IMG/VR virus record: IMGVR_UViG_3300021431_000003
Location: 1 to 64,000 of that record
Direction: 5' to 3' (one strand)
Length of the DNA: 64,000 nucleotides
From: a virus
Lineage: Duplodnaviria; Caudoviricetes
Below are positions 9,052 to 53,400 of this stretch, one piece after another. Within the stretch, counting starts at the first letter, position 1, and the number at the start of each line of letters is the position of its first letter. The notes beneath the pieces were generated by a model. The model made no database searches. It had not been told where the DNA came from and was given only the letters and a program-made list of their open reading frames with translations. Position numbers and translations under genes: made by a program.

Positions 9052-9255
9052 AATAAAACCCTCCTTGGGTTGATGCAGCTTTATGCCGCTGGTGCTCTTG
9101 ATATTATCTCCACACCAAATATGTTGATTTTGGTTTCTCAGGAGCATAGCAAAACAGCAACCTGAGGAGTAGAGATTTGATTCTTATTATCTCTTACTCA
9201 CTTATATTATATACATATCAAATAGTAAACTTTTACAATCTCATAACATATAAAT

Positions 9256-9346
9256 AATCGTAGTGAAAAATATCATACATATTAAAACCTTCTATTCAAG
9301 TATTATCCACACATGCTGGTCATGTGTGGATAAATACTGTCCTTTG
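9256..9346 (+). ncRNA. Candidate small RNA (late promoter, anti-RBS segment, hairpin)
   Basis: AACA-tataaa-TAAT at 9245; no ORF; catacatattaaaaccttct is the complement of an RBS+ATG; 12-bp hairpin tatccacacatg/catgtgtggata. Confidence 0.45.
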
Positions 9347-9375
9347 AACTGTTTTATAAAGGAGGTCGTATTATT

Positions 9376-9678
9376 ATGCATATGATTAATAGCTTTACAA
9401 CGTTAAATAAGAGCAATCGTAGAGGGGGAGTATATTATATAAACTATTATAATCTACGGCTTTGGTTAGAAAGTTATTTTTCAGGATATAGTTTTGCAGT
9501 TAATGCAGATATGTCTGATAATACTATAACGGTTGATATATCTAAGGTATTGTCTGATGATGATATAGGAAATAAAGAAACACATGTGGCTTGTGCTAGA
9601 ATACCAATTGTATTTATAATGTATAATAATGAATATAAAATTAGACAAGTCATTCAAGATGCTATTTATGGGAGGTAA
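9376..9678 (+). CDS. Hypothetical protein
   Basis: 100 aa, RBS aaggagg, late motif at 9347. Confidence 0.65.
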   Translation: MHMINSFTTLNKSNRRGGVYYINYYNLRLWLESYFSGYSFAVNADMSDNTITVDISKVLSDDDIGNKETHVACARIPIVFIMYNNEYKIRQVIQDAIYGR

Positions 9679-9989
9679 TATATTATATGAAAGATATACA
9701 ATACTCATCATCAGAAGTCACTACCATATATAAAAGTGAAGAACATGCCCAAAAAATATTAAAAGCTATAAAAGAATAAGGTGACGATATAAAGTCATTA
9801 AAATCTTATGCTATTGATAGTCACGATTCTATCACAAGTACTTTAAAAATGATATATTGGATACTCATATTTTCCATAATTGTTAATATGTTTACTGCAG
9901 GTCTTCTTATCTATATTCTATATCGTTTATTTGGATAACGATAGTATAACTAACTAATATATAAACCTATGATGAAAGGAGGGTTTAGA

Positions 9990-10323
9990 ATGGCTTTATC
10001 TATAGGATTGGGAACTTTTGAATCTATTTATGATATACAAGAATTAGAAAAGCAAAAAAGAACTACGAGATGAAGAACTAAAAACTATAATCTCTAATAA
10101 TGAGAAAATATGTAAACGTATTGATGATGAATTAAATTATTCAAAATCTATAGGTGAAGTCGAAAATGATAAACCTATAGATATAATAAATCATAAATTG
10201 AGTTTAGCACGACTTAATGCTACAAAGATAGATATAGATGATAATATATCTAAACTTGAAGCTGAATTGTGTAAACTATATAAATTACGTAAACAATATG
10301 AGGAGGTGTTAAGAAATGTCTGA
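9990..10323 (+). pseudogene. Frameshifted small coiled-coil gene
   Basis: MALSIG...LEKQK then stop at about 10071; the +1 frame continues ELRDEELK...YEEVLRNV; break lies in an A6 run at 10054-10059. Confidence 0.5.
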
Positions 10324-10468
10324 TAAGTTTGGTCTGATAACAGAGCAGGGCTATAACATGCCTGGCAGCTATGGTTATAAGCCTCTCAATGAGGAAGACA
10401 ATCGTAAGATTCTTGAAGAGAATGCTAAGAAAGAGTCCGATAAAGAAAAAGAAAAGAAAGATAAGTGA
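10316..10468 (+). CDS. Small hypothetical protein (50 aa)
   Basis: RBS gaggagg; MSDKFGLITEQGYNMPG...KKDK. Confidence 0.6.
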   Translation: MSDKFGLITEQGYNMPGSYGYKPLNEEDNRKILEENAKKESDKEKEKKDK

Positions 10469-10870
10469 GTGATTATAATGGGAATAGCAGAACAGCTTAG
10501 AGTTGCTAATATGGATGATGAAATCAAAATTATTAATAAGATTATAGCAATAGCTATAGAGCATGGCGGCGATGGAGGCGGTCCATATTTTACTGAACAT
10601 GAAAGATTATATGAAGCTATACATGATTGGCTTAAGCATAATCATTTAGAGAATGATTATTGTATAGTCGGTGGAGGTACATTTGATAACGAATTCGAAT
10701 ATGATGGTGTTCCGAAAATAGTACCTGTTTTTAAACGCAATAGTGCTCCGAAAATAGTACTACCTGAAGAAAATCCAGTAGTAAATATGGATAATACTAG
10801 AACTCAAGATGAACTTAATATCTTGATTGAAGAATCGTTAGACTCAATTATTGAAGAAGAAAAGGAGTAA
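10469..10870 (+). CDS. Hypothetical protein
   Basis: 133-aa ORF, coupled to the tubulin gene; contains AIEHGGDGGGPY motif. Confidence 0.65.
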   Translation: MIIMGIAEQLRVANMDDEIKIINKIIAIAIEHGGDGGGPYFTEHERLYEAIHDWLKHNHLENDYCIVGGGTFDNEFEYDGVPKIVPVFKRNSAPKIVLPEENPVVNMDNTRTQDELNILIEESLDSIIEEEKE

Positions 10871-10876
10871 TTTATA

Positions 10877-12172
10877 ATGAACAGAAGCTTTACATTTGGT
10901 TGTGGACAGGGTGCAACTAAAGCAATGATTTATTGCATTGAGAATGGCACTCTTGACAGAGATGAATGTTGTGTTGTTAATTCTACTGTTAAGGATATTC
11001 CAGAAGATTATAGAGAGGATTGTATTATCATCTCTGAAGACCCAGATGCAGGATGTGGTAAGGTACGTTCTGCTGCTAAGAAGCTTATGCTTGCTTATCT
11101 CAGAAATAATCCTAATGTTATTACTGCACGTATTCCTGATGATGTACAGTATGTAAATATCATTACTACTACAGAAGGTGCATCTGGTTCTGGTGCATCT
11201 GTAGTACTTGCAAAGTATATCGAGTCTCAGCTTGATCTGCCAGTAATCATTACATTGATTTGTGGCTTTGAGTCTGATACTAGAGGTTTGCAGAATACTA
11301 TTGAGTATTTCAAAGACCTTGAGGGTGGTAACTTTGTTGTCAGAACTGTATCTAACAAGAGATTTCTTGAAAAGACTAATAATACTTTTGTTGCAGAAAA
11401 GATGGCAAATGCAGATATCTCTACAGCTTTCAAGGTTGTAAATGCATTTGACATTGTAGATTCTGAGCAGAATATTGATGATACTGACCATTACAAGCTG
11501 ATTACTAATCCTGGTATGATGTTTGTTACCGAAGTTACATTTGATAAGAAGCTTAAGAATCCTAATCAATTCGACCAGCTTGTATCTGATGCAATTGATT
11601 ACTCTTCTTCTCTTGACTTCGAACCATCTGCTACAAAGATTGGTGTGTTTATGAATATCTCTGATGATAACCTTAGTGTTATCGACACTAGCTTCTCTGC
11701 TATCAAGAAGAAGCTTTGTGGTAATAATACCATCGAGGAGTTTTTTGTTCATAGACAGTATAAGGTTGATGAGCCAGAGTTTGTAAGAATTATTGCATCT
11801 GGTATGAATCTTCCTAAGGAAGAGCTTCAGGATATGTATGCTAAGTATCAGAAGAATCTTACTGTAAATAACAACGATGATGATTTCTTCAGTGCTATCT
11901 CTGGTATGGAGACCGTATCTCAGAATACATCTACTGGAAGAAAGAAGAATGATAATGACGACTTCTTCTCTCAGTTTGATGCAGAAGAGACTACAGAAGA
12001 AGATGAACTTGTTATCAGACGCAGTAAGAGAAGAAGACCTACTGGTAATTCTGGCACACCTGATACAAAGGTCGATTCTAATGGTGGTTACGAAAAGAAG
12101 CGTGGTTTTACTGCAAAGAAAACCAATTCTAACGAAACTCCATACTCTGAGGATGTAATTAATAAGTTTTAA
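10877..12172 (+). CDS. Tubulin/FtsZ-family GTPase (PhuZ/TubZ-like)
   Basis: FGCGQG (T1), GCGK (T3), TTEGASGSG (T4 signature variant), NIDDTD (T7), acidic C-tail with DDFF repeats. Confidence 0.85.
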   Translation: MNRSFTFGCGQGATKAMIYCIENGTLDRDECCVVNSTVKDIPEDYREDCIIISEDPDAGCGKVRSAAKKLMLAYLRNNPNVITARIPDDVQYVNIITTTEGASGSGASVVLAKYIESQLDLPVIITLICGFESDTRGLQNTIEYFKDLEGGNFVVRTVSNKRFLEKTNNTFVAEKMANADISTAFKVVNAFDIVDSEQNIDDTDHYKLITNPGMMFVTEVTFDKKLKNPNQFDQLVSDAIDYSSSLDFEPSATKIGVFMNISDDNLSVIDTSFSAIKKKLCGNNTIEEFFVHRQYKVDEPEFVRIIASGMNLPKEELQDMYAKYQKNLTVNNNDDDFFSAISGMETVSQNTSTGRKKNDNDDFFSQFDAEETTEEDELVIRRSKRRRPTGNSGTPDTKVDSNGGYEKKRGFTAKKTNSNETPYSEDVINKF

Positions 12173-12181
12173 CATATAATT

Positions 12182-12256
12182 AATGATACTAAGATTTCAC
12201 ACTTCACATTTAATAAAATACCAGAGTGGCACACACCCACTCTGGTATACTTTTGC
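12182..12256 (+). ncRNA. Candidate trans-acting antisense sRNA
   Basis: AACA-tataat-TAAT promoter at 12171, about 35-nt single-stranded part, terminator ataccagagtgg/ccactctggtat; 12191-12211 is complementary to the leader at 53345-53364. Confidence 0.55.
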
Positions 12257-12324
12257 TTTTAATACCATCAACAACTATTTTATAAATAATTGTACCTTAT
12301 TGGGTACGTATAGGAGGTTTTGTT

Positions 12325-13605
12325 ATGAGTAAAGCAGTAGAAACAGCTGCAGAAGTTAATCTTCTTTTGAATGAGGTTAACGATGTATTAGCTAAGACGA
12401 AAGACTATTCAATGATTAATGAAGCTGAATTTGACGTTCAGTATCCGACAGGTTTCTTATCATTTGATTATAAAGCATGTGGTAAGATTATCAATGTAAC
12501 TTATCCAGATGGTTCTAAGACAAGCTATGATTCTATCGGAATTGTAGATGGAGCCATGTATATGATTATCGGACGTTCTGGTTGTGGTAAATCAACTTAT
12601 GGCGTTCAGATATCTTCAAACATTATTCGTAATTTCATTAATGGAATTATGTTTGTCGATATTACTGAAGCTACTGGTATGATGAAAGACAGACTTCAAG
12701 ACCTAACTGGTTTTAGCGATGAAGAGTTCTCTAAGAAAGTTAAGATGAGAAACGCTGGTATTACAATTGAAAATGTGTACAAGCGTATTAAAGTCATTCA
12801 TGATGTTAAAATCAGTAATCCAGATAAGTATAAATACGATACTGGTCTGGTTGATTGTTTTGGTAAGAAGATTTATAAATTCCAACCAACTGTATATCTC
12901 GTAGACTCTATTCCTTATCTTACAACAGAGAAGATTGCTGAAGAAGAAGAGATGTCTGGTCAGATGTCTGTTACAGCAAATGCAAAAGCTCTTGCACAGT
13001 TCTATAGAAGGACTACTCAGGTTTGCAAAGAAGCTAATATTATCTTTATCGCTATCAATCATATCAATGAAAAGGTAGAGACTGGAATTGTTCATACAAA
13101 GTCTAAGACTCAGTTCCTTAAACAGAATGAAACTCTTCCTGGTGGTAATGCACCTATCTATTCTTCTACAATCTTTAGGATGGATGATGGTTCAAAGCTT
13201 ACTTCAGATAAGGACTTTGGTATTAATGGTTGTTATGTAACCATTTCTAATGTCAAGTCTCGTTCTGGTATTTCTGGTACTGAATCTGCAGTAGACTTGA
13301 TATTTAACTATGTTACTGGATTTGATCCAGACCTGTCTCTCTATATGATGCTTAAGAATGCAGGTAGAGTAAATGGTGCAGGTGCTTATCTGTATTTCGG
13401 TGATAGAAGTGATTGTAAGTTCTCTCAGAGAGGATTTAAATCTAAACTCTATGAAGACCCCGAATTTCTTAATATCTTCGTAGAAGAAGTGGTGACATAT
13501 CTTAAGACAGAACTTGCTGAATATGCAAGACTTAAGTCAATGCCTATGTCTAAGGCGACAAATATGATTATCGATAAGATTAGAGTAATGAACAATGTAA
13601 ACTGA
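12325..13605 (+). CDS. RecA/UvsX-like recombinase ATPase
   Basis: YPTGFLSFD, Walker A GRSGCGKST, Walker B YLVDSI, IFIAINHI, PGG.A. Confidence 0.8.
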   Translation: MSKAVETAAEVNLLLNEVNDVLAKTKDYSMINEAEFDVQYPTGFLSFDYKACGKIINVTYPDGSKTSYDSIGIVDGAMYMIIGRSGCGKSTYGVQISSNIIRNFINGIMFVDITEATGMMKDRLQDLTGFSDEEFSKKVKMRNAGITIENVYKRIKVIHDVKISNPDKYKYDTGLVDCFGKKIYKFQPTVYLVDSIPYLTTEKIAEEEEMSGQMSVTANAKALAQFYRRTTQVCKEANIIFIAINHINEKVETGIVHTKSKTQFLKQNETLPGGNAPIYSSTIFRMDDGSKLTSDKDFGINGCYVTISNVKSRSGISGTESAVDLIFNYVTGFDPDLSLYMMLKNAGRVNGAGAYLYFGDRSDCKFSQRGFKSKLYEDPEFLNIFVEEVVTYLKTELAEYARLKSMPMSKATNMIIDKIRVMNNVN

Positions 13606-13613
13606 GGTATGAG

Positions 13614-13630
13614 TGTATATTATTAGTGTG
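13614..13630 (+). promoter_or_regulatory. Early-type promoter driving non-virion RNAP/ligase genes
   Basis: tgtatattattagtgtg, followed directly by a 5' hairpin gtgtgagatg/catctcacac. Confidence 0.65.
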
Positions 13631-13681
13631 AGATGAGCAATCATCTCACACCAATAATCTATCAAAAAGGAGGAAATTGTC

Positions 13682-15934
13682 ATGAAGGACGGAATTTATG
13701 AAAAGATATACTCCGATCCTGCCATAGATAAACATATCGAAGCAGCAGGAAAGAAGTATAACAACGATATGGAACGAATGATTGGCGTCGGATTAAACAT
13801 GCCTTGTGAAAGTGAAAACTCTGCTGCAAGAAAGAACATGTTCTCTTCTCAGTATCAACAGCATGTTTGTTTAGTCGACCCAGAAATACCTTATGTCTCT
13901 ACAGGTTATGAGAACCTGTTTGGATGGCATAGCTCATCGTTTATAAAGTCAGATAGGAACTGGCGTGTATTTGCAAAGATTGAAAAATTTGCTAATAAGC
14001 CTGGTCATCATTACTTTCTGATTGTAATAGATGAGAATAACAACATGGATGTTATCGAAAGGGTATCGTATTGTCATAATACAGAAACTTACGGTTTTAT
14101 GTATGACAACAAATATCTCGATAAACTCGTACAAGGTTCTATAATTCCAGTAGGTCAAACCATTAAAAAGTCTAAGTCTTTTGATGAGTTTGATAATTAT
14201 ATGCCTGGTAAGAACCTGATGGCAATGTATGTAGCTGATGCAAATACAACTGAAGATGCTATTGAATTATCTAGAAGCGCAGCTATAGCATTAGCTAGAA
14301 CAGAAATCAAGAAGGTAACAATTCTTATTAATGATAACGATATCCCTCTTAACTTATACGGAGATAATAACTCTTATAAGATTATACCAGATATTGGAGA
14401 ATATGTAAAGAATGGTATGCTTTGTGGTACAAGAACAGAAAGAAACGATGAATCGTTCTTTACCCAGAGTGCAGAACGGCTCAGAACACCGATGATTAAC
14501 GATGTGACCTTTAAACCAAAAGGCCATAATGCTCAAGTTGTAGACATTGATATATTCTGTAATAAAGATATAGCATCTTCTAATAATGGAATATATGAAG
14601 GTCAGTTAGCATTCTATGACAGTAATTATAAAAGATTCTGTCAGGAATTCGTTAATATCATGAAGAACTATATTAACAATAGTGACTATCATAAATCTTA
14701 CGAGCTTAGTAAGATGTATAGTAACTGTCTTAGTGTAGTTCAGGGTAAACAGTATTTCAAAGACAATGTGTTCTCGAATATCATTCTTGAGATTACATTG
14801 TATGAAGAGTCTCCTCTTGACAAAGGAGATAAGATTACCTCTAGAACTGGAGGTAAAGGTGTTATCTCTAGAGTTATTCCAGACGAAGAGATGCCTAGAA
14901 TTAGCGGTACAGATGTAATAGTTGACCTTATTTGGAATCAAGCTACATGTGTTAATAGATTGAATCCTGGTCAGCTCTTTGAACTGTCACTTAACTTTAT
15001 TGCAAGCAATCTTGTAAATACTATCTCTACTGAAATATTTGATGTAGAGCAGACAGTTGCATTGATTTATGATTTTTATAATCATCTGTCCCCAGAATTT
15101 GCAAATAGTTTTCTTGAATGTGTGAACTTACAAGTCGATGATGATAATGCTTTATTAGCTATAGCAAATATGTTAACACCAGATGGTGACGGACTTTATA
15201 TGGCTCTTAAACCTATCTCTGAAGCAGTAACGTTTGAACAGCTCATGAAAATCTATGGTAATTATCCGTGGATTAAACCAGTTTTCCTCGACGTTCCTGT
15301 TGTAGGATCTAGAGGACAGATTAGATTCATACAGAGTCAGAAACCTAGTATTGTTGCAAAGCAGTATATCTATAGGATGAAACAGAATGCTGAGGAGAAA
15401 CATTCTGCTACATCTCTATCTGCGACAAATATTAGAAACATGAACTCTAAGTCCAAAGCATCCAAGATGTATATTCGTACTCATTCCAATACACCTATTC
15501 GTTTTGGTGAGATGGAAGGAAATATCTTTAAAGCTATGGGTGCTGAAATTGACTGCATCAACATGATGATTTATAGCAACTCTCCTATCGGTAGAAGAGA
15601 TGCTAAACAGATGTTGACGTCGTATAAATTCGATGTACAGCTGTCTGAGAATGCCAAGTCAAGAAGTGCTGAGATACTGAATGCAATTATTAAGACTATG
15701 GGAATCAAGTTTGTATTTAACAAGATTCCGATTAAGTATGGTAATGTATTTCAGTTCTTAGACCCGCAGAATGATAAGCTGTTTGTATTCTTAGACCCAG
15801 AAAAGGATAAATTGTTCGTTAATGTATCTAAGGAAGAAAAGAAACTCTTTATTCCAATTGAGGATAATGAGAGACTTCTGTTTACTCCTGTTACAGATAA
15901 CGAACGTAAACTCTTTGAATATAAAGGAGATTGA
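13682..15934 (+). CDS. Non-virion RNA polymerase beta subunit, C-terminal half
   Basis: NSAARKNMFSSQ, PGKNL...TEDAI, GDKITSRTGGKGVIS, NRLNPGQ, YIYRMKQ, PIRFGEME. Confidence 0.9.
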   Translation: MKDGIYEKIYSDPAIDKHIEAAGKKYNNDMERMIGVGLNMPCESENSAARKNMFSSQYQQHVCLVDPEIPYVSTGYENLFGWHSSSFIKSDRNWRVFAKIEKFANKPGHHYFLIVIDENNNMDVIERVSYCHNTETYGFMYDNKYLDKLVQGSIIPVGQTIKKSKSFDEFDNYMPGKNLMAMYVADANTTEDAIELSRSAAIALARTEIKKVTILINDNDIPLNLYGDNNSYKIIPDIGEYVKNGMLCGTRTERNDESFFTQSAERLRTPMINDVTFKPKGHNAQVVDIDIFCNKDIASSNNGIYEGQLAFYDSNYKRFCQEFVNIMKNYINNSDYHKSYELSKMYSNCLSVVQGKQYFKDNVFSNIILEITLYEESPLDKGDKITSRTGGKGVISRVIPDEEMPRISGTDVIVDLIWNQATCVNRLNPGQLFELSLNFIASNLVNTISTEIFDVEQTVALIYDFYNHLSPEFANSFLECVNLQVDDDNALLAIANMLTPDGDGLYMALKPISEAVTFEQLMKIYGNYPWIKPVFLDVPVVGSRGQIRFIQSQKPSIVAKQYIYRMKQNAEEKHSATSLSATNIRNMNSKSKASKMYIRTHSNTPIRFGEMEGNIFKAMGAEIDCINMMIYSNSPIGRRDAKQMLTSYKFDVQLSENAKSRSAEILNAIIKTMGIKFVFNKIPIKYGNVFQFLDPQNDKLFVFLDPEKDKLFVNVSKEEKKLFIPIEDNERLLFTPVTDNERKLFEYKGD
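15743..15931 (+). repeat. Six degenerate 33-bp (11-aa) tandem repeats at RNAP C-terminus
   Basis: NVFQFLDPQND/KLFVFLDPEKD/KLFVNVSKEEK/KLFIPIEDNER/LLFTPVTDNER/KLFEYKGD. Confidence 0.8.
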
Positions 15935-15938
15935 TTTT

Positions 15939-18263
15939 ATGAATCCTATGCATTCGATTGTGGAACAGTTATTGAAAGGAGATGCATCTTGTCTTACACA
16001 GGATGTCATCTTTAATATCAATAATATGGTAATAGCTCTTATCAATAAAGAACCTCTTACCAGTGTAGAGCAGGATATCGTTAACGATATCCTGCACATT
16101 TCTAATCTCATCTACAATAATACGGATAGAAGTATCCTTGTATTGGAAGATGGAGTATATGACCTTCTCTTAGAGAAGTATAAGCGTTATAATCCTAACT
16201 TTCAGGTTGGTGCTGAGCCTGTAACGATTGGTAATTTCGGAACATCGGATGTAATCAATGATACGTCTGAAATCGAAAGAGACCAGTTGTTTGTATTTCA
16301 GCCATATGTAGATACTAGAGATTATATGTTTAGAGATGAGCTTACTCACTCTGACTTATATGGTAATGCTATTATTAACAGTAATGGTATCAAGACAGTA
16401 TCTAAGAGACTTAAGAATACAAGTCATAAGTATCCTCAACTTGTAGGAACTCTTCATAAGAATAAGTTTGTTCTTGATGTAGAAGCACAGCAAAGAGGAG
16501 TATATGATGATTCTAATGTCAGAATCTTTGAGCGTGATTTCTTAAGAAAACATGTTCAAACAGGAATCGTTAACCCAAATTATATTGAGCTTGTATTAGA
16601 GCTTAAGTATGATGGTGTTAGCGTAGAAGCAGAGGTGACTGATAGAATCCTGTCTGCAAGAACTCGTGGTGATACACAGATGGATAAAGCATCTGACCTT
16701 ACTCCGATTCTTCAGGGATATAGATTCACTAAAGCTTCTGGATTTGACATTCAACCGTTTGGTATGAAGTTTGAAGCAGTGATTTCATATCAAGCATTAC
16801 AAGAGCTTAGCATTGAATGTGGTAAACAATATGTGAATCCGAGAAATGCAATCATTGGTATTCTTGGTAATTCTGAAGCTGCTAAATATGCTAAGTATAT
16901 CACTCTGGTTCCTCTTCAGACAAGTCATGATAATATGACAAGAGAAGAGGAACTTATCTTCATGAACAGATATTATTCTACTGGAGAATATATCAGATAT
17001 GCCATCGTAAGAGGTGACTATAATTCTGTATTGTTCCAAGTAAAGAAGTTTGTTGATGAAGCTGAAGCGGTAAGAGAAGCTATGCCATTTATGTATGATG
17101 GTGTAGTAGTATCTTATCTCAATCCTCAGATTCGTAATGCTCTCGGTAGAGCTAATTCTATCAATGAGTATTCTACTGCGATTAAGTTTAATACAAAGAA
17201 GAAGCTTACTCGTTGTAGAGGAATCAGCTATACTGTTGGAGCTAATGGTGACATTACTCCGATGATTCATTATGACCCTATAGAGTTTTATGGTATGATT
17301 AATACTAAATCCTCTGGTCATAGTTATGCAAGATTCCAGGAATTAAATCTTCATCCTAATGATATTCTTGAAATTGAATATGTCAATGATGTCATTGCGT
17401 ACGTTAGGAAAGCAATGGTTCCTGAGAATCAATTTAACCCGTTAAGACCGTTTACTTTCACTCAGACTTGTCCAGAATGTGGTTCTCAGTTAGTTTTGTC
17501 AGAAACTGGTAAGAATGTAACTTGTACAAATATGATGTGTAAAGGAAGAGTAGTGGCTAGAATGACTAATATGGTAGCTAAGCTTGGTTTCAAGGGATTC
17601 TCTGAAGAAACTATTAAACAGCTTGATATTAAGTCATTTAGTGAACTTATGACGTTAACTGAAGATAAGACAAGTATTCTTGGTCCTACAAACTCTAAGA
17701 ATCTTATAGATGCGATTGAGTATCTGTATAATTCTAATGTACCAGATTATATTCTTATTGGAGCTCTTGGATTTACTAACATCGCAGCTGGTAAATGGAA
17801 AAGTATTCTTAAGACAGTTAATCTTGCTGACATTATAAAGCTTTCTCAAAATGAATTGTTCTTCAAGCTGAATTCTTCTGGTAAGGGAATTGGAAGTAAG
17901 ACAGCTACTACAATCATTCAGGAAAGAGATGCATTTAAGAATGATTTGGTATATATCTATAATATGCCAAATGTAATCTTTACAAAAGATGGTAATAACG
18001 AAATCATTGAACTTGGTAAGAAGATTAGATTCTCTGGAGTTCGAGATAAAGAACTTGAACAGAGATTAACTTCTAGAGGACATGATTGTTCAGATGGTTC
18101 TGTAACTAAAGATACAGACTTTCTGATTATTCCATTTGTAGGATTCACTAGTGGTAAAGTATCTAAAGCACTTGACTACAATGCTAAGAATCCAAATCAT
18201 CAGATTATGATTATAACATTGGATGAATTCAAACTCAATGAGACTTCATACCTTAAGGGTTGA
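15939..18263 (+). CDS. ligA: NAD-dependent DNA ligase
   Basis: ELKYDG adenylation motif, TRGD, NPRNA, YDGVVV, CPECGS...C..C zinc finger, C-terminal BRCT-like domain; ATG 15939 with aaaggag RBS. Confidence 0.92.
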   Translation: MNPMHSIVEQLLKGDASCLTQDVIFNINNMVIALINKEPLTSVEQDIVNDILHISNLIYNNTDRSILVLEDGVYDLLLEKYKRYNPNFQVGAEPVTIGNFGTSDVINDTSEIERDQLFVFQPYVDTRDYMFRDELTHSDLYGNAIINSNGIKTVSKRLKNTSHKYPQLVGTLHKNKFVLDVEAQQRGVYDDSNVRIFERDFLRKHVQTGIVNPNYIELVLELKYDGVSVEAEVTDRILSARTRGDTQMDKASDLTPILQGYRFTKASGFDIQPFGMKFEAVISYQALQELSIECGKQYVNPRNAIIGILGNSEAAKYAKYITLVPLQTSHDNMTREEELIFMNRYYSTGEYIRYAIVRGDYNSVLFQVKKFVDEAEAVREAMPFMYDGVVVSYLNPQIRNALGRANSINEYSTAIKFNTKKKLTRCRGISYTVGANGDITPMIHYDPIEFYGMINTKSSGHSYARFQELNLHPNDILEIEYVNDVIAYVRKAMVPENQFNPLRPFTFTQTCPECGSQLVLSETGKNVTCTNMMCKGRVVARMTNMVAKLGFKGFSEETIKQLDIKSFSELMTLTEDKTSILGPTNSKNLIDAIEYLYNSNVPDYILIGALGFTNIAAGKWKSILKTVNLADIIKLSQNELFFKLNSSGKGIGSKTATTIIQERDAFKNDLVYIYNMPNVIFTKDGNNEIIELGKKIRFSGVRDKELEQRLTSRGHDCSDGSVTKDTDFLIIPFVGFTSGKVSKALDYNAKNPNHQIMIITLDEFKLNETSYLKG

Positions 18264-18369
18264 AAATTAAACCAGTCCAAACAAGATTATAATCATATAT
18301 AATTATGGTGTAATAGAGAGTGACATCTCTATAATAAAACTAAAACCGATTTTTAAGGAGGAAACTACT

Positions 18370-19101
18370 ATGTCAACAATTCTGAGAAATTCTACTATCC
18401 CTGCAGCTTTTAAGTACAAGGTAGAGGAGAAGGCTCCTACCTTTGTACACCCCGCAACAGGTGAAACAATTCAGGTTCAGATTGGTCTGAATCCTGACCC
18501 AGTGTCTAACGGCAATTCGTCCGTAGATACTTTCGGTGCTCTGATGATGGCTTGTGCAAATGCAATGGCATCGTCTCAGTTCAAGAACAAAGACAAGAGT
18601 GCCCTCGTATTTAACAAAGCTGACAATGGTGAAATCATTGCAGCAGTCATCTCTTCCTATGATGAAGAGGGAGAGAACTATTTCTATAACTTCACATTCA
18701 ACCCCGAAGATGTGAAGGGCATCAAGAATGTAATCAACTACAAGGACTTTGTAGACGAACAGAGAAACATTACGTTCCCGATGCTTGTAAATGCCGCATA
18801 CTGTGCAGCACATAACATCGCAATCAGTGATTATAATGTTCTTGATGTACTGATTATCAGTGCACTTGAGTGCATTTATCAGTGGCTCGATACTAATGCT
18901 AAGGATGGCGAAGTTGTAGAGCTCGTAATCGACGATTACATCGGTCGTTATGAGAAGATGTCTCCAGAGCAGTATCAGGCAGCACTTGTTCCAGTAGCTA
19001 TTGCTACAGTAGAGACTGTCAAGGATGTCAAGAAGATGTCCATCCAGTTCTCTGAAGAGCTCAAGGCTATCGCCAAGGGCAGCAACGATATGCAGTCCTA
19101 A
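18370..19101 (+). CDS. Hypothetical protein, probably highly expressed
   Basis: 243 aa, aaggagg RBS, C-ending codon bias, both promoter motifs upstream (18280 and 18296). Confidence 0.75.
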   Translation: MSTILRNSTIPAAFKYKVEEKAPTFVHPATGETIQVQIGLNPDPVSNGNSSVDTFGALMMACANAMASSQFKNKDKSALVFNKADNGEIIAAVISSYDEEGENYFYNFTFNPEDVKGIKNVINYKDFVDEQRNITFPMLVNAAYCAAHNIAISDYNVLDVLIISALECIYQWLDTNAKDGEVVELVIDDYIGRYEKMSPEQYQAALVPVAIATVETVKDVKKMSIQFSEELKAIAKGSNDMQS

Positions 19102-19175
19102 AGCATGTCTTGAGTTAAAGTGCAGGTTGGCTTCGGTCAACCTGCATTATTTTTAATATGAAAGGAAACGATGTT

Positions 19176-19946: not shown

Positions 19947-19951
19947 GGAGC

Positions 19952-21682: not shown

Positions 21683-21713
21683 CTTTTAAATAATAATGAA
21701 AGGAGGTGTCTCT

Positions 21714-21959: not shown

Positions 21960-21972
21960 GGATGGTGATACT

Positions 21973-22329: not shown

Positions 22330-22392
22330 AAGAATAAGGGGTAGTTTAAACTACCCCTTATTTTTTAACATCTTTATAAAGGAGATGATATT

Positions 22393-22806
22393 ATGGATGA
22401 TATCTTAACCTATATCACTAACCTATTTTTAGGTAATGGAGTTATTATTATAATTGGATGCTTTGTCGTTGGAATGTTTCTTAAAGGAAGTTTAAAGAAA
22501 CTACCAAATAAATATATTCCATATATTAATATGCTAATCTCAATTGTTTTAGGCTTTTTAATTCCTGGTACGTATGATGAAGAACCTATTATATCTAAGA
22601 TTATCATCTTAGCATTTCTAGGATTATCTTCTGTTGGATTTTATGAAGCCATCTGTACAGCAGTTAAAAATAGATTTAGCATTGATATTAATAAAATATA
22701 CAACAATATAGTAAATACTTCCAATGACTATAGCGTAGAGGAGGAAGAGTCGAATAATCAAACAGATGGGGCTGATTCCCAAGGTATAGACCAAAATGAA
22801 GAGTGA
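22393..22806 (+). CDS. Phage holin family protein
   Basis: Three hydrophobic helices, G.FLK...PNKYIP signature, acidic tail; late promoter at 22367. Confidence 0.75.
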   Translation: MDDILTYITNLFLGNGVIIIIGCFVVGMFLKGSLKKLPNKYIPYINMLISIVLGFLIPGTYDEEPIISKIIILAFLGLSSVGFYEAICTAVKNRFSIDINKIYNNIVNTSNDYSVEEEESNNQTDGADSQGIDQNEE

Positions 22807-22914
22807 TTAAATTGACAGTGTGCCTCCTAAAAGAAGCATGACCTCCTAGGCAATAGCCTGGGAGGTAAGCTTTTATTTTTTATTACACTATAAACATATA
22901 AGTAATCTATTGAC

Positions 22915-22990
22915 GAGGTATTAGCTCAGTCGGTAGAGCAATAGCCTTTTAAGCTATGGGTCGTGGGTTCGAATCCCACATGCCTCACCA
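22915..22990 (+). tRNA. tRNA-Lys(UUU)
   Basis: Cloverleaf GAGGTAT/ATGCCTC, anticodon loop CTTTTAA, TTCGAAT, encoded CCA. Confidence 0.95.
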
Positions 22991-23024
22991 TTAAAATATT
23001 TATAAAATAAAGGAGAGATTTATT

Positions 23025-23405
23025 ATGACACCTGTACTCGAAAACAGCAAGCAGCTTATTGTCAAGAAAGACAAGGTAATCTGTAAAGCTAAGGTTACTC
23101 CAGATAACTTTAAAAATACTGATTCTGTCGCAAGTCCAGCAAGATTTTTCGTATATGAACCTGAATTTATCGGTGTTGCAACTCTTAAGGAAGGAGATAC
23201 TGATAATGTAAGAGAAGCGATTCATATTGCTGAGTCTAAGATGGAAAGACAGTATTACAAGTATATTCTTTCTCAGTTCAAAGCAGAAAAGGCTATGCTT
23301 GAAAATACAATTCTTCCTGAAATCGATAATATGATTAAAAAGAATTCTAAGAATGTTGAATCTATCAATAATCATATTCTTGATATTGTAGATAGTATGG
23401 ATTAA
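23025..23405 (+). CDS. Hypothetical protein
   Basis: 126 aa with aaggag RBS; pattern FIGVATLKEGD.DN...A..IAESK. Confidence 0.7.
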   Translation: MTPVLENSKQLIVKKDKVICKAKVTPDNFKNTDSVASPARFFVYEPEFIGVATLKEGDTDNVREAIHIAESKMERQYYKYILSQFKAEKAMLENTILPEIDNMIKKNSKNVESINNHILDIVDSMD

Positions 23406-23445
23406 AACAATTCCAACCTTCACGGTTTGACATAAACATTGGTAT

Positions 23446-23780
23446 ACTGCCATGGTGACCAGTGTTGACCTCCTATTTATGTCTAGATTGTCTAGACCAC
23501 CCAGTAATTGTTAATCAATTACTGGGTGATAAATCATTGATATTGGGTGACTCCCAGTATCAGTGTCCATTGTTGTTATTAATTTAGTTTAATCAAAACA
23601 ACTGTGGAAAACGATGGCGGCCGCAGATGCAGGGCAAATCCCTGGTCTGGAACGAGGCGATTGAATTCTACAGTAGATGGATTTGAAATAGCTTGTTGAC
23701 TGGGACATGTCGTCAACATCATCATTCTAGATTCTGATGATTTCAAATTTGAATAAGGTAAGCTCTATAAGCTTATCGAA
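23446..23780 (+). ncRNA. Candidate structured non-coding RNA upstream of tRNA-Pro
   Basis: AACA-N6-TA at 23435; no ORF; series of hairpins and two multibranch domains. Confidence 0.5.
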
Positions 23781-23806
23781 CTTCCCAATTGATAACAACG
23801 CTAGTA

Positions 23807-23884
23807 CGGGATGTAGCTCAGTTTGGCCAGATCACCACATTTGGGATGTGGGGGCCGCAGGTTCGAATCCTGTCATCCCGACCA
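23807..23884 (+). tRNA. tRNA-Pro(UGG)
   Basis: CGGGATG/CATCCCG acceptor stem, anticodon loop TTTGGGA, TTCGAAT, CCA; one D-stem mismatch. Confidence 0.93.
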
Positions 23885-24060
23885 TCTGACTTTATGTCAG
23901 GCATACATCGTTCCCACAATCGTTGTAAAGAATTCATAGAAATGACTCCTTTTGAAACGGTAGGCTGAGCCCCGATAGGTTATTCCTATCGGGGTTTAGT
24001 CTGCTTTTACAGTATCGAGAACTAATATATAAACGTCAGCGTACGTATTAAGGAGGAATT

Positions 24061-26700: not shown

Positions 26701-26713
26701 AAAAAGAGGGCGC

Positions 26714-27256: not shown

Positions 27257-27404
27257 AATAAACCTCCAGAGGTCGTAGAATCTTTATAGCTGTTTTACAG
27301 CAACCTCATCTTCTACTATAATAATATATAAATATGTTCTTGAAACATTACAAATGTGTCTGTTGAACATTCACATAATATCAAACTACGAAAGGAGTAT
27401 GTAT

Positions 27405-32651: not shown

Positions 32652-32658
32652 TAGAAAG

Positions 32659-32689
32659 ACCCCGCAGGAACATAGAGTCCTGCGGGGTT
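32659..32689. terminator. Terminator between RNAP gene and tRNA cluster
   Basis: accccgcagga/tcctgcggggt 11-bp stem. Confidence 0.8.
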
Positions 32690-32760
32690 AAATTAGGAGA
32701 ATTGAAATAAAATATTGTGAAACAAAACGTGGAAATTGTGTCAGCTTATTAAAAAGCTGA

Positions 32761-32835
32761 TGGTGACCCCTACGGGAATCGAACCCATGTTGCCAGAATG
32801 AAAATCTGGAGTCTTAACCGCTTGACCAAGGGGCC
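32761..32835 (-). tRNA. tRNA-Glu(UUC)
   Basis: GGCCCCT/AGGGGTC, anticodon loop TTTTCAT, TTCGATT, CCA. Confidence 0.93.
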
Positions 32836-32866
32836 ATTATAAATAAGTTATATATTTAATAAAATA

Positions 32867-32953
32867 TGGTGCCGCTGACGGGACTCGAACCCGTATGGAT
32901 ATTTCACCGACGGATTTTAAGTCCGTTATGTCTGCCTATTTCATCACAGCGGC
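32867..32953 (-). tRNA. tRNA-Leu(UAA)
   Basis: GCCGCTG/CAGCGGC, loop CTTAAAA, long variable arm, CCA. Confidence 0.93.
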
Positions 32954-32959
32954 ATTTGA

Positions 32960-33042
32960 TGCGGGTGACAGGACTTGAACCTGCACGTCATAAGACATGA
33001 GAACCTAAATCTCACGAGTACTGCCAATTTCTCCACACCCGC
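32960..33042 (-). tRNA. tRNA-Leu(UAG)
   Basis: GCGGGTG/CACCCGC, loop TTTAGGT, long variable arm; ends A-TCA rather than CCA. Confidence 0.9.
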
Positions 33043-33153
33043 ATTTATAATTAAGTTATAGTTATTGTAAAACAAAAAAAATAAGACTGTATATTATTAT
33101 ATCGATAAGGTTAATGTCTTCCTTGTCAAATTCATTTTTAGGAGGTATTTATA

Positions 33154-33513
33154 ATGAAAAAGACATTTAGTAAGCAGAAAGTTTTAAGAAAAATCGGAGA
33201 ACGGTGCATCAAATTCCGTACAGAGAAGAAGCTCAGTCAAAAGGAACTGGCAGCAATGGCGGGGTTCAGCCCCGCCTATATCGGCAGAGTCGAGCGAGGT
33301 GAAACGTGTCCCAATATAGACACACTCTACAAAATCGCCAACGCTTTAGAGATTTCACTGTCCGAATTAACAAATATAGAGGAGGATGATGGATACATAA
33401 TGGATAAATATAGAGACGAGATAGAGTATATTCTCTTTATGTCACTTTATCCTGATAAGGTCATGAAGGTAATAAGGGAGATATTTGAAATCACAAATGG
33501 AGGGTTAATGTGA
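33154..33513 (+). CDS. XRE/Cro-C1 helix-turn-helix regulator
   Basis: IG...R.EKKLSQKELAAMAGFSPAYIGRVERGE..P..DTL.KIANAL; early promoter at 33088. Confidence 0.9.
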   Translation: MKKTFSKQKVLRKIGERCIKFRTEKKLSQKELAAMAGFSPAYIGRVERGETCPNIDTLYKIANALEISLSELTNIEEDDGYIMDKYRDEIEYILFMSLYPDKVMKVIREIFEITNGGLM

Positions 33514-35219
33514 TGAAAACAAAAGAGAGACTGTTCGAAAAATTTGAGGCAGTGGTAAATCACTGTCGCAACGTGCCGATTGCTGTGTTTGTTATTCTGA
33601 GCACGATATTCAATTATCTGCTCGGTCAGAACATAGCAAAGACCAATGAGCTGTATTCCGATATCAGCTCGTACGACAAGCTGGAGTTCTTTAATGCTCT
33701 TATCCAGCTCATGGTTCTTTGGATTATCTTAAGAGCGTTTAATCAAGTAATCGGTAAAATTAACAAGCATTGGCTGCTTGATTATAATTATTTGAAATGG
33801 ATTACTAAGCTGACTAATAGTAAACTCAGCTCGATAAGTTCCATTTCAACTGGAACCGCAAATAATGCAATCAACACTATTGCTATGTGCAATAAGGGTA
33901 TAGTAGATTGTGTTATGAGCATTATTCCAAACATAATTCCATTCATTATGCTTTGTCATAAAGAATGGCAAGTCGCTGGATGTATTCCAACAGCGATAAA
34001 CGTAGGATGTATAGGTCTGTTTGTTCTGTATTCATGGAAAGCAATGAATTTCATGACGTACAAGAGACAGGCAAAAGCACGGTCTGAAATTAGTACAGTT
34101 ACAATTGACTGTATTAAGAACAGTCAGACTGTAAAGTACTTCAATAAAGAGGATTGGAGTATTGATAGACAGGACAAAATGCAGGCTAAGACATTTGGTG
34201 CTCAGCTTGGTATCCCTGGAATGGTACTAACAGTAATCTTTTATAGTATCATGTGGTTACCAACAATAGCTGCAGTATGGCTTTGTTGGGAAGATATGTC
34301 TACTGTACTGTATGTTATCATGATGTCTTATGTCATCGATAACATTGGTGGATATATATCTTGTATAATGGAATCTATGACTGAAAAGAAAAATCAGTTA
34401 GAGATTCTTGGTAAACTCGAAGTTGATGACAAGAATCGACTTCCAATTGATGAGAGTATCTATATAAAGAGTGCTTGCTTTACGTATGACAAAGATAATA
34501 CAAAAGCAAGTATCTTTGTAATTAAAGACCTCGAAATCAAGAAAGGTCATAGATATTGCGTAACAGGTAAGAGTGGATTTGGTAAGTCAACTCTCGCCAA
34601 ATTGATTACAGGTACCTATGCTCCTACAGAAGGAAATATTCCGTTGGTAGAGTCAGTCTACATGTTTGCCGAGAGCGAAATGTTCAATATGAGCATCGCC
34701 GACAATATTACTCTCGGTGAAGCATATGATGAGAAAGAGATTCTTGACATGTTGGATACTTTTGAAGTATCTACTAGTCTAGATATCTTTAAAGACTCTG
34801 TCGGAGAGAATGGCAACAAACTCTCTACTGGACAAAAACAACGCATCAATCTCTGTAGGACTTTGTTCTATGCAAGAAGACATCCTAGTAGCCTTATAGT
34901 AATGGATGAAGTTACTGCAGCGCTTGATATCAAGACATCTCTGGTTTGTCTTAGATATTTGACAGCAGAGTTCAAGAGACTCGGTATTACGCTGATATAT
35001 ATCAGCAATAAGACTGATTATCTTAAAACCGACCTTATCACTGATAATATCTATGTTCATCGTAATTTTAATGTCGTGACATATGATACAAAACAGGATA
35101 TAAGTCCGAGAGTTGCAATGTTTTATAAACATCGTAATGATTTGACAGAAGATGCTGTTGTGATTAGCGAGTCATATGCAGATTCTCTTCCGTCAGTTAT
35201 TACTGGTTTCGAGGATTAA
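33510..35219 (+). CDS. ABC transporter, fused permease + ATPase (exporter type)
   Basis: About 5-6 TM helices, then GKSGFGKST, LSTGQKQR, IVMDEVTAALD; H-loop reads ISNK. Confidence 0.85.
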   Translation: MMKTKERLFEKFEAVVNHCRNVPIAVFVILSTIFNYLLGQNIAKTNELYSDISSYDKLEFFNALIQLMVLWIILRAFNQVIGKINKHWLLDYNYLKWITKLTNSKLSSISSISTGTANNAINTIAMCNKGIVDCVMSIIPNIIPFIMLCHKEWQVAGCIPTAINVGCIGLFVLYSWKAMNFMTYKRQAKARSEISTVTIDCIKNSQTVKYFNKEDWSIDRQDKMQAKTFGAQLGIPGMVLTVIFYSIMWLPTIAAVWLCWEDMSTVLYVIMMSYVIDNIGGYISCIMESMTEKKNQLEILGKLEVDDKNRLPIDESIYIKSACFTYDKDNTKASIFVIKDLEIKKGHRYCVTGKSGFGKSTLAKLITGTYAPTEGNIPLVESVYMFAESEMFNMSIADNITLGEAYDEKEILDMLDTFEVSTSLDIFKDSVGENGNKLSTGQKQRINLCRTLFYARRHPSSLIVMDEVTAALDIKTSLVCLRYLTAEFKRLGITLIYISNKTDYLKTDLITDNIYVHRNFNVVTYDTKQDISPRVAMFYKHRNDLTEDAVVISESYADSLPSVITGFED

Positions 35220-35277
35220 AATAAAGGGCGTCACAACGGCGCCCTTTATTTTTTATTTTAGAACTTGTTATATTATA

Positions 35278-35688
35278 TCAAGCGATTCTTGGAATAAAGA
35301 ATTCTATACTCTGTTTAATATCATATGTACCTGTAGATGGAATGAATGTCTTAATGACAGATGTATTGTCATTAAGGTTAATAGTTTTAATCATCAGTTC
35401 TCGTCCCATATCATTTACAATCGTTGTCTTATATACATTCTCTTTATACCAGATACTTTCTACATATGTAAGATTATTGATATAAGTCTTTCTTTCTTCT
35501 AATGTCAATATATCATTACTATACTCAGCATAGTATACTCTTCTACCTATATCATCATATGAGTAATGATGCTTCACTAATTCTCCATCAACACCTTTAG
35601 ATTCAGAGTATGTAACTCTACCTTCATTATCATACTTACTGAACCCATATGCACCAGTTCTTTTCCTTGCTTTCTTTCCAAATAACAT
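35278..35688 (-). CDS. Small YD-repeat-like protein
   Basis: KYDNEGRVTY, YSYDDIGRRVYY, NDMGRE repeats; aaaaggag RBS. Confidence 0.55.
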   Translation of the reverse strand: MLFGKKARKRTGAYGFSKYDNEGRVTYSESKGVDGELVKHHYSYDDIGRRVYYAEYSNDILTLEERKTYINNLTYVESIWYKENVYKTTIVNDMGRELMIKTINLNDNTSVIKTFIPSTGTYDIKQSIEFFIPRIA

Positions 35689-35699
35689 TTTTCATTCTC

Positions 35700-36090
35700 C
35701 TTTTCAAAATGGTATACGACGTCTCTCGAATTAAAATAATCCTAACACTTTAGGTCAACGATACAAGAAGAAAGACTCACTTACTTCTCAAAACTGCTAC
35801 GGGTGTCTTCATAAAAAAATAAATCTTACACCACAAACGAGCGTAGCGAGTGCAGTGGTGAAATCTTCGTCCGTAAGGACGGATAGTTTCAGTAATAAAA
35901 ATTTAAATATAAGAAGACACTATTACTTTAAGCCTTATCAAATCCCTCTCTTTCTATTCTAACTTTTCAACTTCTATACCTTGGAAGAGTCCCACCCCAG
36001 CCAAGTTCTTCGTTCCTAAACGCTCAAGGATTATTTTATATATATGTCCGCTCGTTTGTAAAAAATTACTATCATTCTAGTATTATTCTA
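35700..36090. other. Long intergenic region with nested inverted repeats; candidate replication origin or structured element
   Basis: About 400 bp without an ORF; gtgtcttc/gaagacac encloses caccac/gtggtg around cgagcgtagcgag and cgtcc-gtaa-ggacg. Confidence 0.35.
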
Positions 36091-36144
36091 TTGAAAACTT
36101 CTATGTAATAACATATTTATCTATATCTCAAAGGAGGATAAATT

Positions 36145-36942
36145 ATGATGAACGTAAGTAAAAGACATGTCTATTTTATAGAAGGCGGAGATAATGTAGG
36201 TAAGACTACTACTATTCAAACTTTTAAACAGAATAAGTATATTGAATCTATTAAATTCAATAGAGTGAGATTCTCTAAATATCCAACTAGTGATGCTACT
36301 AATACTATCAATAGACTCAATACTTTATATAAAGAGAATGAAGCTAGACATAAGAATAAAGAAGTTAAAGATAGTGAGTATGTAAGAACTAAAAGAAGTA
36401 TATTAGAAAGTCTTATCAATACTATGATATGTGATATGATATCTAGTTTTGATACTCTATATAATGATAAGTGGGCAATGGCATGTCCAGATGATGTATT
36501 AGAAATATGTGATAGAGGATTTCTATCTACTTATCTATACCAATATAGAGATATGCCTGGATTAATACAAAAACTTATATCAAATATAGATGTAGAACTA
36601 GAATATCTTAAAGCATTCATTAACAAGTATCTACCACCTACAATGAATGATATCAATGTTATTATACTCAATAATAATGCTAATCCATTACTAGCAAATA
36701 TTATAATGGATGACACTGAGACTATAGAGTATAAGAAAGACTTTGATAACAATATAGAACTTCAGAGTAGGATTAACAATTCTTTAAATAATATAGTAAG
36801 ACTGATTCAACAAGATAAGGTATATGATTTATTACCAATCAAGTTTTATTATATTAATATATTTGACGAAACAGGTTCTATCAGAAAATCCCCCGATGAA
36901 ATCTGTGAAGAAATCAAAGCCATTATAAACAAGGAGGAATAA
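36145..36942 (+). CDS. Thymidylate/dNMP kinase
   Basis: FIEGGDNVGKTT P-loop, F.KYP, CDRGFLSTYLYQ. Confidence 0.8.
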   Translation: MMNVSKRHVYFIEGGDNVGKTTTIQTFKQNKYIESIKFNRVRFSKYPTSDATNTINRLNTLYKENEARHKNKEVKDSEYVRTKRSILESLINTMICDMISSFDTLYNDKWAMACPDDVLEICDRGFLSTYLYQYRDMPGLIQKLISNIDVELEYLKAFINKYLPPTMNDINVIILNNNANPLLANIIMDDTETIEYKKDFDNNIELQSRINNSLNNIVRLIQQDKVYDLLPIKFYYINIFDETGSIRKSPDEICEEIKAIINKEE

Positions 36943-36945
36943 CAC

Positions 36946-38109
36946 ATGTTTGGACCATCTTCAATCAAATTGAAATGTAGACTACTCTATAAGAATAGTC
37001 TAGTCAATAACATCTATGAGGCATGTACTTGTTGTTATGACAATACTAAGAATATCAATTATTTAGAAAAGAAAGATTATATCGGCAAGAGAATCAATGC
37101 TGGTCATGAATCTATTCTAGAACATGGAAGACTTGCTATTCTTTTTAATGATATCCCTTATAGTCTTCATAATGATATTATTGAACTTATAGGATTAGAA
37201 TACTCTAAGTGGTTAGAATTCTATACTGTACAACTTGAAAATAGAAACTACAATCTTATTGTCAATGGTAGTATCAGAGCATATAAGCATTTTCTTAACA
37301 ATCTTGAAGCAGATGTATATGATAGAAACGATATTATTCGTGATATCTGTAAGATTCTTAGAGAAAATACTGTAAAAGAACTCTATGGTAAGAGCAAGCA
37401 TATTAACTTTGATGATTTTGTCGATGTAGAACCAGATGTATTAGATATTGATATACCTAATACTGGTATTGACTATGATATCGTTTGTGAAAAATCTATC
37501 GATGGTGTTGTTACTAATGGAGAAGAAGGTATTAAGAGAATCACACTTGGAGCAGATGAACTATTTGTTACAGAACTCTCTGATATCAAAGAAGTTATTC
37601 TTCACTATGGATTTAATAAAGCTGTAATCTATAATATTCTTCCTATCACAGTAGTATTCTATAACATGTCTCGTACAGCAACACATCAACTTGTACGTCA
37701 TAGAAATGCTATTACACAAGAATCTCAAAGATATGTAAATGCTAAGAATGCTACATTTACTATTCCTGTACCAGATTATACAGATGAAAAAGAGTATACT
37801 GTAGAAATCTTTGGTAATAAAGTTACAGCACCTCTTACTGTACTTGCAACTGGTCTTACTAAAGTATATGACCAACTAATTAGACAGGGTCTTAAGAAAG
37901 AAGAAGCAAGAGCATTCCTACCAGCAAATATCAATTGTGGTAGATTATATATGACATTCACTTTATCTAATCTTATTGCTTTCTTAAATCTTAGAACAGA
38001 TCCACATGCTCAATATGAGATTAGAAAGTATGCTGAAGCTATAATTGACTTGATTACTTCTATTCCAGACTATGCTATTCTAATTGATAATTATAATAAT
38101 ATAGTGTAA
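36946..38109 (+). CDS. thyX: Flavin-dependent thymidylate synthase (long form)
   Basis: GHESILEH, SR...HQLVRHR..QESQRY, EEARAFLP, LR...HAQYEIR. Confidence 0.88.
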   Translation: MFGPSSIKLKCRLLYKNSLVNNIYEACTCCYDNTKNINYLEKKDYIGKRINAGHESILEHGRLAILFNDIPYSLHNDIIELIGLEYSKWLEFYTVQLENRNYNLIVNGSIRAYKHFLNNLEADVYDRNDIIRDICKILRENTVKELYGKSKHINFDDFVDVEPDVLDIDIPNTGIDYDIVCEKSIDGVVTNGEEGIKRITLGADELFVTELSDIKEVILHYGFNKAVIYNILPITVVFYNMSRTATHQLVRHRNAITQESQRYVNAKNATFTIPVPDYTDEKEYTVEIFGNKVTAPLTVLATGLTKVYDQLIRQGLKKEEARAFLPANINCGRLYMTFTLSNLIAFLNLRTDPHAQYEIRKYAEAIIDLITSIPDYAILIDNYNNIV

Positions 38110-38137
38110 TTATTTATTAAACTACCAACTATAAAGT

Positions 38138-38375
38138 AATGCATTAATGATGTGTGCTGTCAGTATGTGATGGCTTTTTCCGTCGTTATGCATTTGCGCA
38201 AGAGCAGAAGCTGTATTTGCTTTATATTACAGCTGTGTGTGCTGACATAGGCGGATCTGAGCTTGACACTAGCGACTAGGTACCATCGCTGAATAAGTGT
38301 CTGTAAGACTCCCCCACTCCTAGCACTGCAAGCACAATTGTGTTAAGCCTATCATTGCAGCTTTCTGCTCTTATT
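38138..38375 (+). ncRNA. Candidate pseudoknotted ncRNA, about 235 nt
   Basis: Late promoter at 38127; GC-richer, no ORF; long stems 38138-52/38181-94 and 38200-15/38356-72; loop 38158-67 pairs with 38238-47. Confidence 0.6.
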
Positions 38376-38512
38376 ATTTTTTAAAAGTTCCTATACTCAG
38401 GGTCATAAAATACTGTCCTTTCAAAAAGAATTTGAACCCTAGCACAAAGCTAGGGTTCATTTCTGCCGTTTTGAACAAATTAGTAATATATTCAATGAAA
38501 GGAGTATATCTC

Positions 38513-42623: not shown

Positions 42624-42625
42624 TT

Positions 42626-53295: not shown

Positions 53296-53400
53296 ATTGT
53301 ATAACCTCCTTATTAGATTATTACTTTAGTATATAAATTGACAAAAGATTTCACACACACATTTTTATTTATATGTTTATAAGCAAAAGTTTAAAGTAAA

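Follow-up and report, generated by a model that had tools for sequence, protein, structure and literature searches.

Candidate late small RNAs and tRNA trailers with anti-Shine-Dalgarno tracts in an AR9-like rumen phage

The CiaR-dependent small RNAs (csRNAs) of streptococci carry unpaired sequences complementary to the Shine-Dalgarno sequence (SD; complement, anti-SD) and to the start codon (anti-AUG) ahead of a terminator, and have been proposed to block translation initiation (PMC3091779). In the temperate phages P1 and P7, a single 77-nt antisense RNA, c4, controls the antirepressor (reviewed in PMC12197685). Giant phages with their own RNA polymerases are described mainly through their promoter classes, and the small RNAs (sRNAs) mapped in 201phi2-1 and phiKZ, one of them beside a tRNA, are given no function, target or anti-SD grammar in the portions of the report considered here (PMC11512511). 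For AR9, late and antisense transcripts have been described, the antisense ones opposing genes in cis (PMC5312081). Here we analyze the first 64,000 nucleotides (the window) of the virus record IMGVR_UViG_3300021431_000003, a complete phage record of 223,528 bp with a GC content of 33%. An initial annotation of the letters alone had read several of its non-coding segments as anti-SD tracts that may act as sRNAs. Our comparison of this phage with its relatives suggests that translation of phage mRNAs is probably damped by late, terminator-capped RNAs, which would accumulate and pair in trans with the start region or 5' leader of their targets.

The phage encodes split RNA polymerase subunits, a tubulin, a holin, thyX, an NAD-dependent DNA ligase, and tRNAs, and its genes carry strong, Firmicute-type SDs. 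The motif AAC(A/T)-N6-TA, the late promoter consensus of AR9 (PMC5312081), has a 49-fold higher density in non-coding DNA. The phage belongs with the AR9/PBS1-like jumbo phages by its split multisubunit RNA polymerase genes and AACA-N6-TA late promoters, and the sequencing runs that contain it are gut or rumen metagenomes; we regard it as an AR9-like phage of the rumen that brings its own RNA polymerases. PBS1 and AR9 are its nearest cultured relatives (32%), and we found no cultured phage matching its tubulin or RNA polymerase DNA. We compared it with four whole relatives, G001 (median 83% amino-acid identity) and G002, G004 and G005 (∼60%), which together with the window phage make up the five phages counted below, and with ∼20 additional relative loci (L numbers). 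The enrichment tests are post hoc, and the orthologs are not independent of one another. A search against Rfam returned tRNAs and no other match.

Anti-SD words in late units without reading frames

The anti-SD signal is positional: it is confined to late units that lack an open reading frame (ORF) and is absent from coding leaders. Among the short, tRNA-free, ORF-less units that run from a late promoter to a hairpin in the five phages, 18 of 26 contain an anti-SD word (5.2 in dinucleotide-shuffled sequence), and the enrichment is reproduced when the genomes are split into two disjoint sets (11/15 and 7/11). SD words occur in 1 of these 26 units, and anti-SD words are found in 5 of 61 late leaders of coding genes versus 4.3 by shuffling. 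Up to 40 nt upstream of terminator-like hairpins, the five phages hold 33 anti-SD words versus 18.6, or 12 versus 4.9, depending on which of two energy thresholds is applied, with 5 SD words versus 5.5 in the same zone as a control. An anti-AUG stands at start-codon spacing in 18 of 33 anti-SD cores compared with a 13% background, the 33 cores being a curated set that contains the picks of the initial annotation. As in csRNAs, the two elements lie in unpaired sequence.

All seven motifs listed by the initial annotation are present exactly where it placed them, the minus-strand one reading from 32706 to 32695. Its picture of single-stranded tracts beside hairpins holds on folding for those at 9274, 22816, 23460 and 32696, which are unpaired next to strong hairpins; those at 23930 and 38402 fall into weak local stems. 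It also spoke of a family, which is correct for the grammar of the tracts and not for their descent, their sequences being mutually unrelated. The 14-mer common to 9332 and 38408, offered as a family motif, loses that status: the 9332 copy forms the foot of a hairpin and is not kept by relatives, its TCCTTT being lost in the close relatives G001 and L139, and ∼5 shared 14-mers are expected by chance in shuffled non-coding DNA. The core of the proposal, late-promoter sRNAs and tRNA or ncRNA trailers with conserved, exposed anti-SD tracts, is supported in the sequence. A late promoter motif and a terminating hairpin, with no conserved ORF, define the units that we call C, D, E and J, and tRNA processing is predicted to release tracts I and K. 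An exposed seed is conserved in H, C, D and I, and patchily so in J and K.

Predicted partners of the late RNAs

Exact complements of the conserved seeds are not conserved across the phage genomes, and start-region windows of −28 to +22 gave no convincing conserved target; windows this short miss extended duplexes. The tracts in 3' untranslated regions (UTRs) pair with the start region of their own or the next gene at ordinary ranks.

The pairing that we hold most firmly involves unit D (12171–12262, plus strand), the sister RNA 12182, which combines a late promoter, a 36-nt unpaired CA-rich seed without anti-SD, and a terminator, and which is conserved in ∼15 relatives. Its predicted target (53345–53364, minus strand) comprises the first ∼20 nt of a late transcript (promoter 53377) directed toward gene 51973–53295, which clusters with a virion structural paralog. 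The site is the best partner of the seed in 4/4 phages that carry it, and in G004 seed and target site are shortened in a matching way. From this complementarity we consider it likely that D pairs with the leader of the virion operon.

Tract I (23915–23953, plus strand) lies in the 3' trailer of tRNA-Pro upstream of a terminator (23959–24004), and the 23930 motif is its 3' end. It closes a predicted late transcript (22893–24005, plus strand) that would contain tRNA-Lys, a 126-aa gene, a structured non-coding part of ∼400 nt, tRNA-Pro, the trailer, and the terminator. The initial annotation had matched the 23930 seed to the SD of the tubulin or the ligase, and these take the top two places genome-wide when the ranking covers the whole 23915–23953 tract and codons 1–12 of each gene. 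The predicted sites, both on the plus strand, cover the SD, start codon, and codons 1–9 of the ligase (15923–15965) and the SD, start codon, and codons 1–10 of the PhuZ-like tubulin (10860–10906). Pairing spans ∼45 nt, with −38.9 kcal/mol for the ligase (rank 1 of 188 start regions) and −37.3 kcal/mol for the tubulin (rank 2), and the order is unchanged when the opening costs of the target are included. With the anti-SD kept fixed, the best-of-genome null is −29.8 ± 2.9, and 0 of 2000 shuffles reach the tubulin value, this being a single target picked after the scan. In G001 the tubulin ranks first and the ligase third. Homologs of the tract occur in G001, L146 and L152, in the latter two without a tRNA directly before it; the sequence is kept in a relative of 66% identity, and the antisense reading frame is not. 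The diverged L146 tract finds its own tubulin as the best of 14 tubulin start regions and does not match its own ligase. On these duplexes, we lean toward a pairing of tract I with tubulin and/or ligase. The L146 tubulin gene (L146:768–2099) is called as two pieces.

Tract K (32659–32760, minus strand) is the 3' trailer of tRNA-Glu, with its anti-SD at 32695–32699, a terminator at 32659–32688, and late promoters at 32849 and 33057; the trailer is present in the window phage and, with the anti-SD shifted, in G001. Its predicted target is the start region (42612–42657, plus strand) of a 262-aa gene at 42626 that follows dCTP deaminase and for which a PHROG scan gave no confident family. This gene ranks 1/188 with and without accessibility, and a stricter alignment test yields p = 0.30, not significant alone. 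The same gene appears as a candidate target of unit E in relatives. Unit E (38127–38465, plus strand) consists of a late promoter at 38127, a structured RNA of ∼300 nt, a 3' tract (38402–38422), and a terminator (38433–38459), and an ORF-less unit occupies its place downstream of thyX in 5/5 phages. The ortholog of gene 42626 ranks 1, 1 and 2 for this RNA in G005, G002 and G004, with lineage-matched changes, among them 10 nt complementary to an unusual SD in G005. That K pairs with the 42626 start region is conceivable, a little short of an even chance by our estimate. Unit E also contains a rod-like domain of ∼173 nt (38198–38372) with short boxes common to G001 and no Rfam match, which lies within an RNA-library contig.

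Unit C (9245–9338, plus strand) has a late promoter at 9245, a predicted start at 9256, an unpaired anti-SD CCTTCT (9288–9293), and a hairpin (9299–9338). Most relatives keep the anti-SD 5' of the corresponding hairpin within diverged flanks and otherwise unrelated sequence, and averaged over 11 phages it exceeds every shuffle. An excess of cognate pairing with three replication-region genes is seen in relatives (p = 0.002–0.005 of 13 tests, which kinship may inflate) and is not seen in the window phage genome. The prohead protease, which the initial annotation had proposed as partner of the 9274 seed, falls away, ranking 10/188 by duplex energy and 156/188 with target accessibility. Unit J (22702–22880, plus strand) starts from a late promoter inside the 3' end of the holin gene and carries CCTCCT (22823–22828) before a terminator (22841–22866). 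Its CCTCC is kept in G001, L141, L142 and a contig of a bovine strain while neighboring bases change; L144 has no holin, yet a similar unit of promoter, anti-SD, and terminator, and J is absent from more distant relatives. Motif H (23435–23497, plus strand) presents an unpaired GACCTCCTA (23467–23475) between two hairpins, the second of which is 87% paired, with double changes. The CCTCC of H is invariant in 10/10 aligned relatives and is found at the locus also in G002, G004, L144, L146 and L152, ∼15 phages overall, the surrounding sequence having diverged. For C, H and J we detected no target in the window phage beyond generic SD pairing, and they may have several SDs or host mRNAs as partners.

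Several further elements of the window, of the rest of the genome and of its relatives stood out. Two perfect DnaA boxes in inverted orientation, TTATCCACA, make up the hairpin of unit C (9303–9333); most relatives keep its TATCCACA arm, and G002 has altered both arms and retained the stem. Between unit C and a 50-aa gene, an insertion relative to G001 (9680–10310) contains two apparent strong-SD reading frames outside the gene calls, the second seemingly interrupted. Downstream of H, a hairpin at 23532–23562 resembles hairpins that recur, each with a conserved GAGGTAATGACTT loop, in a non-coding RNA that precedes an SMC gene in L146 (13060–13250) and L152 (8400–8800). Similar leader hairpins with GAGGT/ACCTC arms precede TGGAGG-SD genes at 27260–27330 and at genome position 114440–114490, and are possibly an early-gene leader element. 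Outside the window, a late RNA at genome position ∼102560–102690 has tandem TTCCTCT tracts in 5/5 phages, and its best conserved partner, again with lineage-matched changes, is the gene 214661 start region. The first 14 nt, ending in ACCTCCA, of another late small RNA (genome 194918, minus strand) are invariant in 5/5 phages, with no convincing target. A glycine-rich micro-ORF of 11 codons, preceded by a strong SD, is found at genome position ∼123480–123530 and also in G001, G002 and G005. In G002 (∼80100–80650 of the reversed record), a long, group I intron-like insertion splits a tRNA-Leu-like gene.

Proposed mechanism and alternative explanations

We propose that the late RNA polymerase of the phage would make dispersed short non-coding RNAs together with tRNA-containing precursors, from which processed 3' trailers closed by a terminator hairpin would be released. 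Each RNA would expose one single-stranded tract that pairs in trans with the start region of an mRNA; its CU-rich core would nucleate at the SD, and where the match is best, neighboring bases would reach over the AUG and the first codons and thereby give specificity. As they accumulate, the RNAs would hold ribosomes off selected phage mRNAs, the tRNA-Pro trailer silencing tubulin and/or ligase and the tRNA-Glu trailer, or the thyX-downstream RNA in other lineages, silencing gene 42626. Since tracts look matched to the tubulin, the DNA ligase and the virion-protein operon, the RNAs probably turn those genes down. The sequence-level evidence is made up of promoter and terminator motifs, conservation, enrichment and complementarity, and from it we infer transcription of the seed tracts, processing, in vivo pairing, repression, and timing. 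Contigs from RNA libraries give a weak hint of the RNAs: three are identical to the phage (23623–23802, 23650–23885 and 38156–38389), non-coding parts in metatranscriptome contigs reach depths of 8–25 versus 2–2.5 for coding pieces, and an RNA contig from a bovine variant strain spans 22671–23565 with CCTCCT kept at 22823–22828.

A number of results count against this mechanism. The RNA contigs carry no strand, end or level information, and those of this strain leave the anti-SD tracts uncovered, which is not evidence of absence. The enrichment expected by the initial annotation holds at the level of units and not for intergenic DNA at large, unpaired tandem intergenic DNA of the genome containing 10 anti-SD 5/6-mers versus 9.8 after shuffling. 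G002, G004 and G005 lack tract I; a third gene, 82302, reaches −38.2 kcal/mol with it before accessibility correction; and the specific covariation predicted for the L146 tubulin codons was not found. The ligase of the window phage is a better partner of the L146 tract (−41.8) than the tubulin of L146 itself (−36.6), which points to a heavy tail of the null for AT-rich duplexes with G-U pairs. Unit E has no clear target in the window phage. Fisher-combined p-values for targets lie at 0.02–0.05 without correction for ten families, and selection biases the cognate-excess tests, which concern top-ranked genes.

The RNAs could be real and act without specificity or on the host, either as mimics of the 16S tail that cover up a large number of strong SDs (host shut-off or general damping) or through seeds for host mRNAs. 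Motif H and the 194918 RNA, with an invariant anti-SD core and no convincing phage target, are as such a mimic would have them, and so is unit C, where the anti-SD persists and everything else has diverged. Phage genes have the same strong SDs, so that a general mimic would strike them too; the tracts of I, K, E and D reach into particular phage sequences; and a wobble-aware scan of 185,579 genomes for the complement of I gave 23 scattered hits, about the rough chance estimate. We judge this explanation unlikely, and still less probable is that chance and hindsight have drawn CU-rich spacers before terminators of an AT-rich genome, and targets from the far end of a wide null distribution, into a pattern. 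Such a pattern would fit the unenriched intergenic DNA, the post hoc tests, the patchy conservation of J, K and the 9332 copy, and non-cognate duplexes that can outdo cognate ones; it fits poorly with the unit-level enrichment and its negative SD and coding-leader controls, with the invariance of CCTCC at H, and with the repeated top ranks of orthologous targets of D and E.

Control in cis deserves mention because of the layout of the loci: each tract precedes a hairpin, then a second late promoter and an SD, and the 38408 sequence can pair with the SD at 38513. A tract might fold onto the SD of the next gene on read-through transcripts, the downstream late promoter relieving the block, much as late genes of T4 escape read-through occlusion by use of a late promoter. 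We give this little credence: the next gene ranks 129/188 for 38402 (gene 38513) and 52/188 for 9332 (gene 9376), and unit C shows no cognate excess with its downstream gene (p = 0.59). The reading to which we assign least weight takes the sites as true SDs of minus-strand micro-ORFs. A well-spaced ATG is present at 9274, 23930 and 38402, and the genome has a conserved micro-ORF with a strong SD elsewhere. The initial annotation had judged the opposite-strand ORFs that it checked unlikely to be genes and had seen no promoter motif for them, and we agree on both points: they are 2–39 codons long or shadow the frame of the 126-aa gene, frame and start change among orthologs, and upstream of the plus-strand tracts there is no late motif on the minus strand. 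The frame at 23930 measures 39, 7 and 10 aa among orthologs and is shifted, and the start codon behind H is absent in G002, G004 and G005. Pairing in trans with phage mRNAs is the reading that we favor. Its extension to a late network of AR9-like phages, in which stand-alone sRNAs, 3' UTRs and tRNA trailers serve as interchangeable carriers, each silencing a specific phage gene such as tubulin or ligase, and control of a target passes between carriers across lineages, as for gene 42626 with the thyX-downstream RNA and the tRNA-Glu trailer, is speculative, and we would rather doubt it at present.

Relation to known regulatory RNAs

The tRNA trailers have a parallel in the 3' spacer of Escherichia coli leuZ, a tRNA-precursor spacer that sponges sRNAs. 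A tRNA 3' trailer serves as a base-pairing RNA there and would do so in the phage; unlike the leuZ spacer, the phage trailers are predicted to occlude the start regions of mRNAs rather than to sponge sRNAs. With the sRNAs of phiKZ-related phages, the units share the form of short promoter-to-terminator transcripts, and their late promoter consensus is that of AR9. They resemble c4 as phage RNAs predicted to pair in trans near the ribosome-binding site of a phage mRNA, and differ from it in that an AR9-like phage here has several such RNAs, whose predicted targets are replication and virion genes; none matches the Rfam C4 model.

The closest likeness is to csRNAs, which are likewise multiple short RNAs under one promoter class with anti-SD and anti-AUG before a terminator. 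The csRNAs are host-encoded, mutually similar and controlled by CiaR, whereas the phage RNAs are phage-encoded, mutually unrelated, driven by the late polymerase and in part tRNA trailers. We do not count them as csRNAs, as they have no Rfam hit and unrelated tracts, and their promoters fit the AR9-type late consensus and not CiaR control, CiaR boxes not having been searched for separately. What this genome appears to add to the known systems are tRNA trailers as carriers and named candidate sRNA-target pairs, which, if true, would provide giant phages with a layer of translational timing and phage tRNA loci with a second job.

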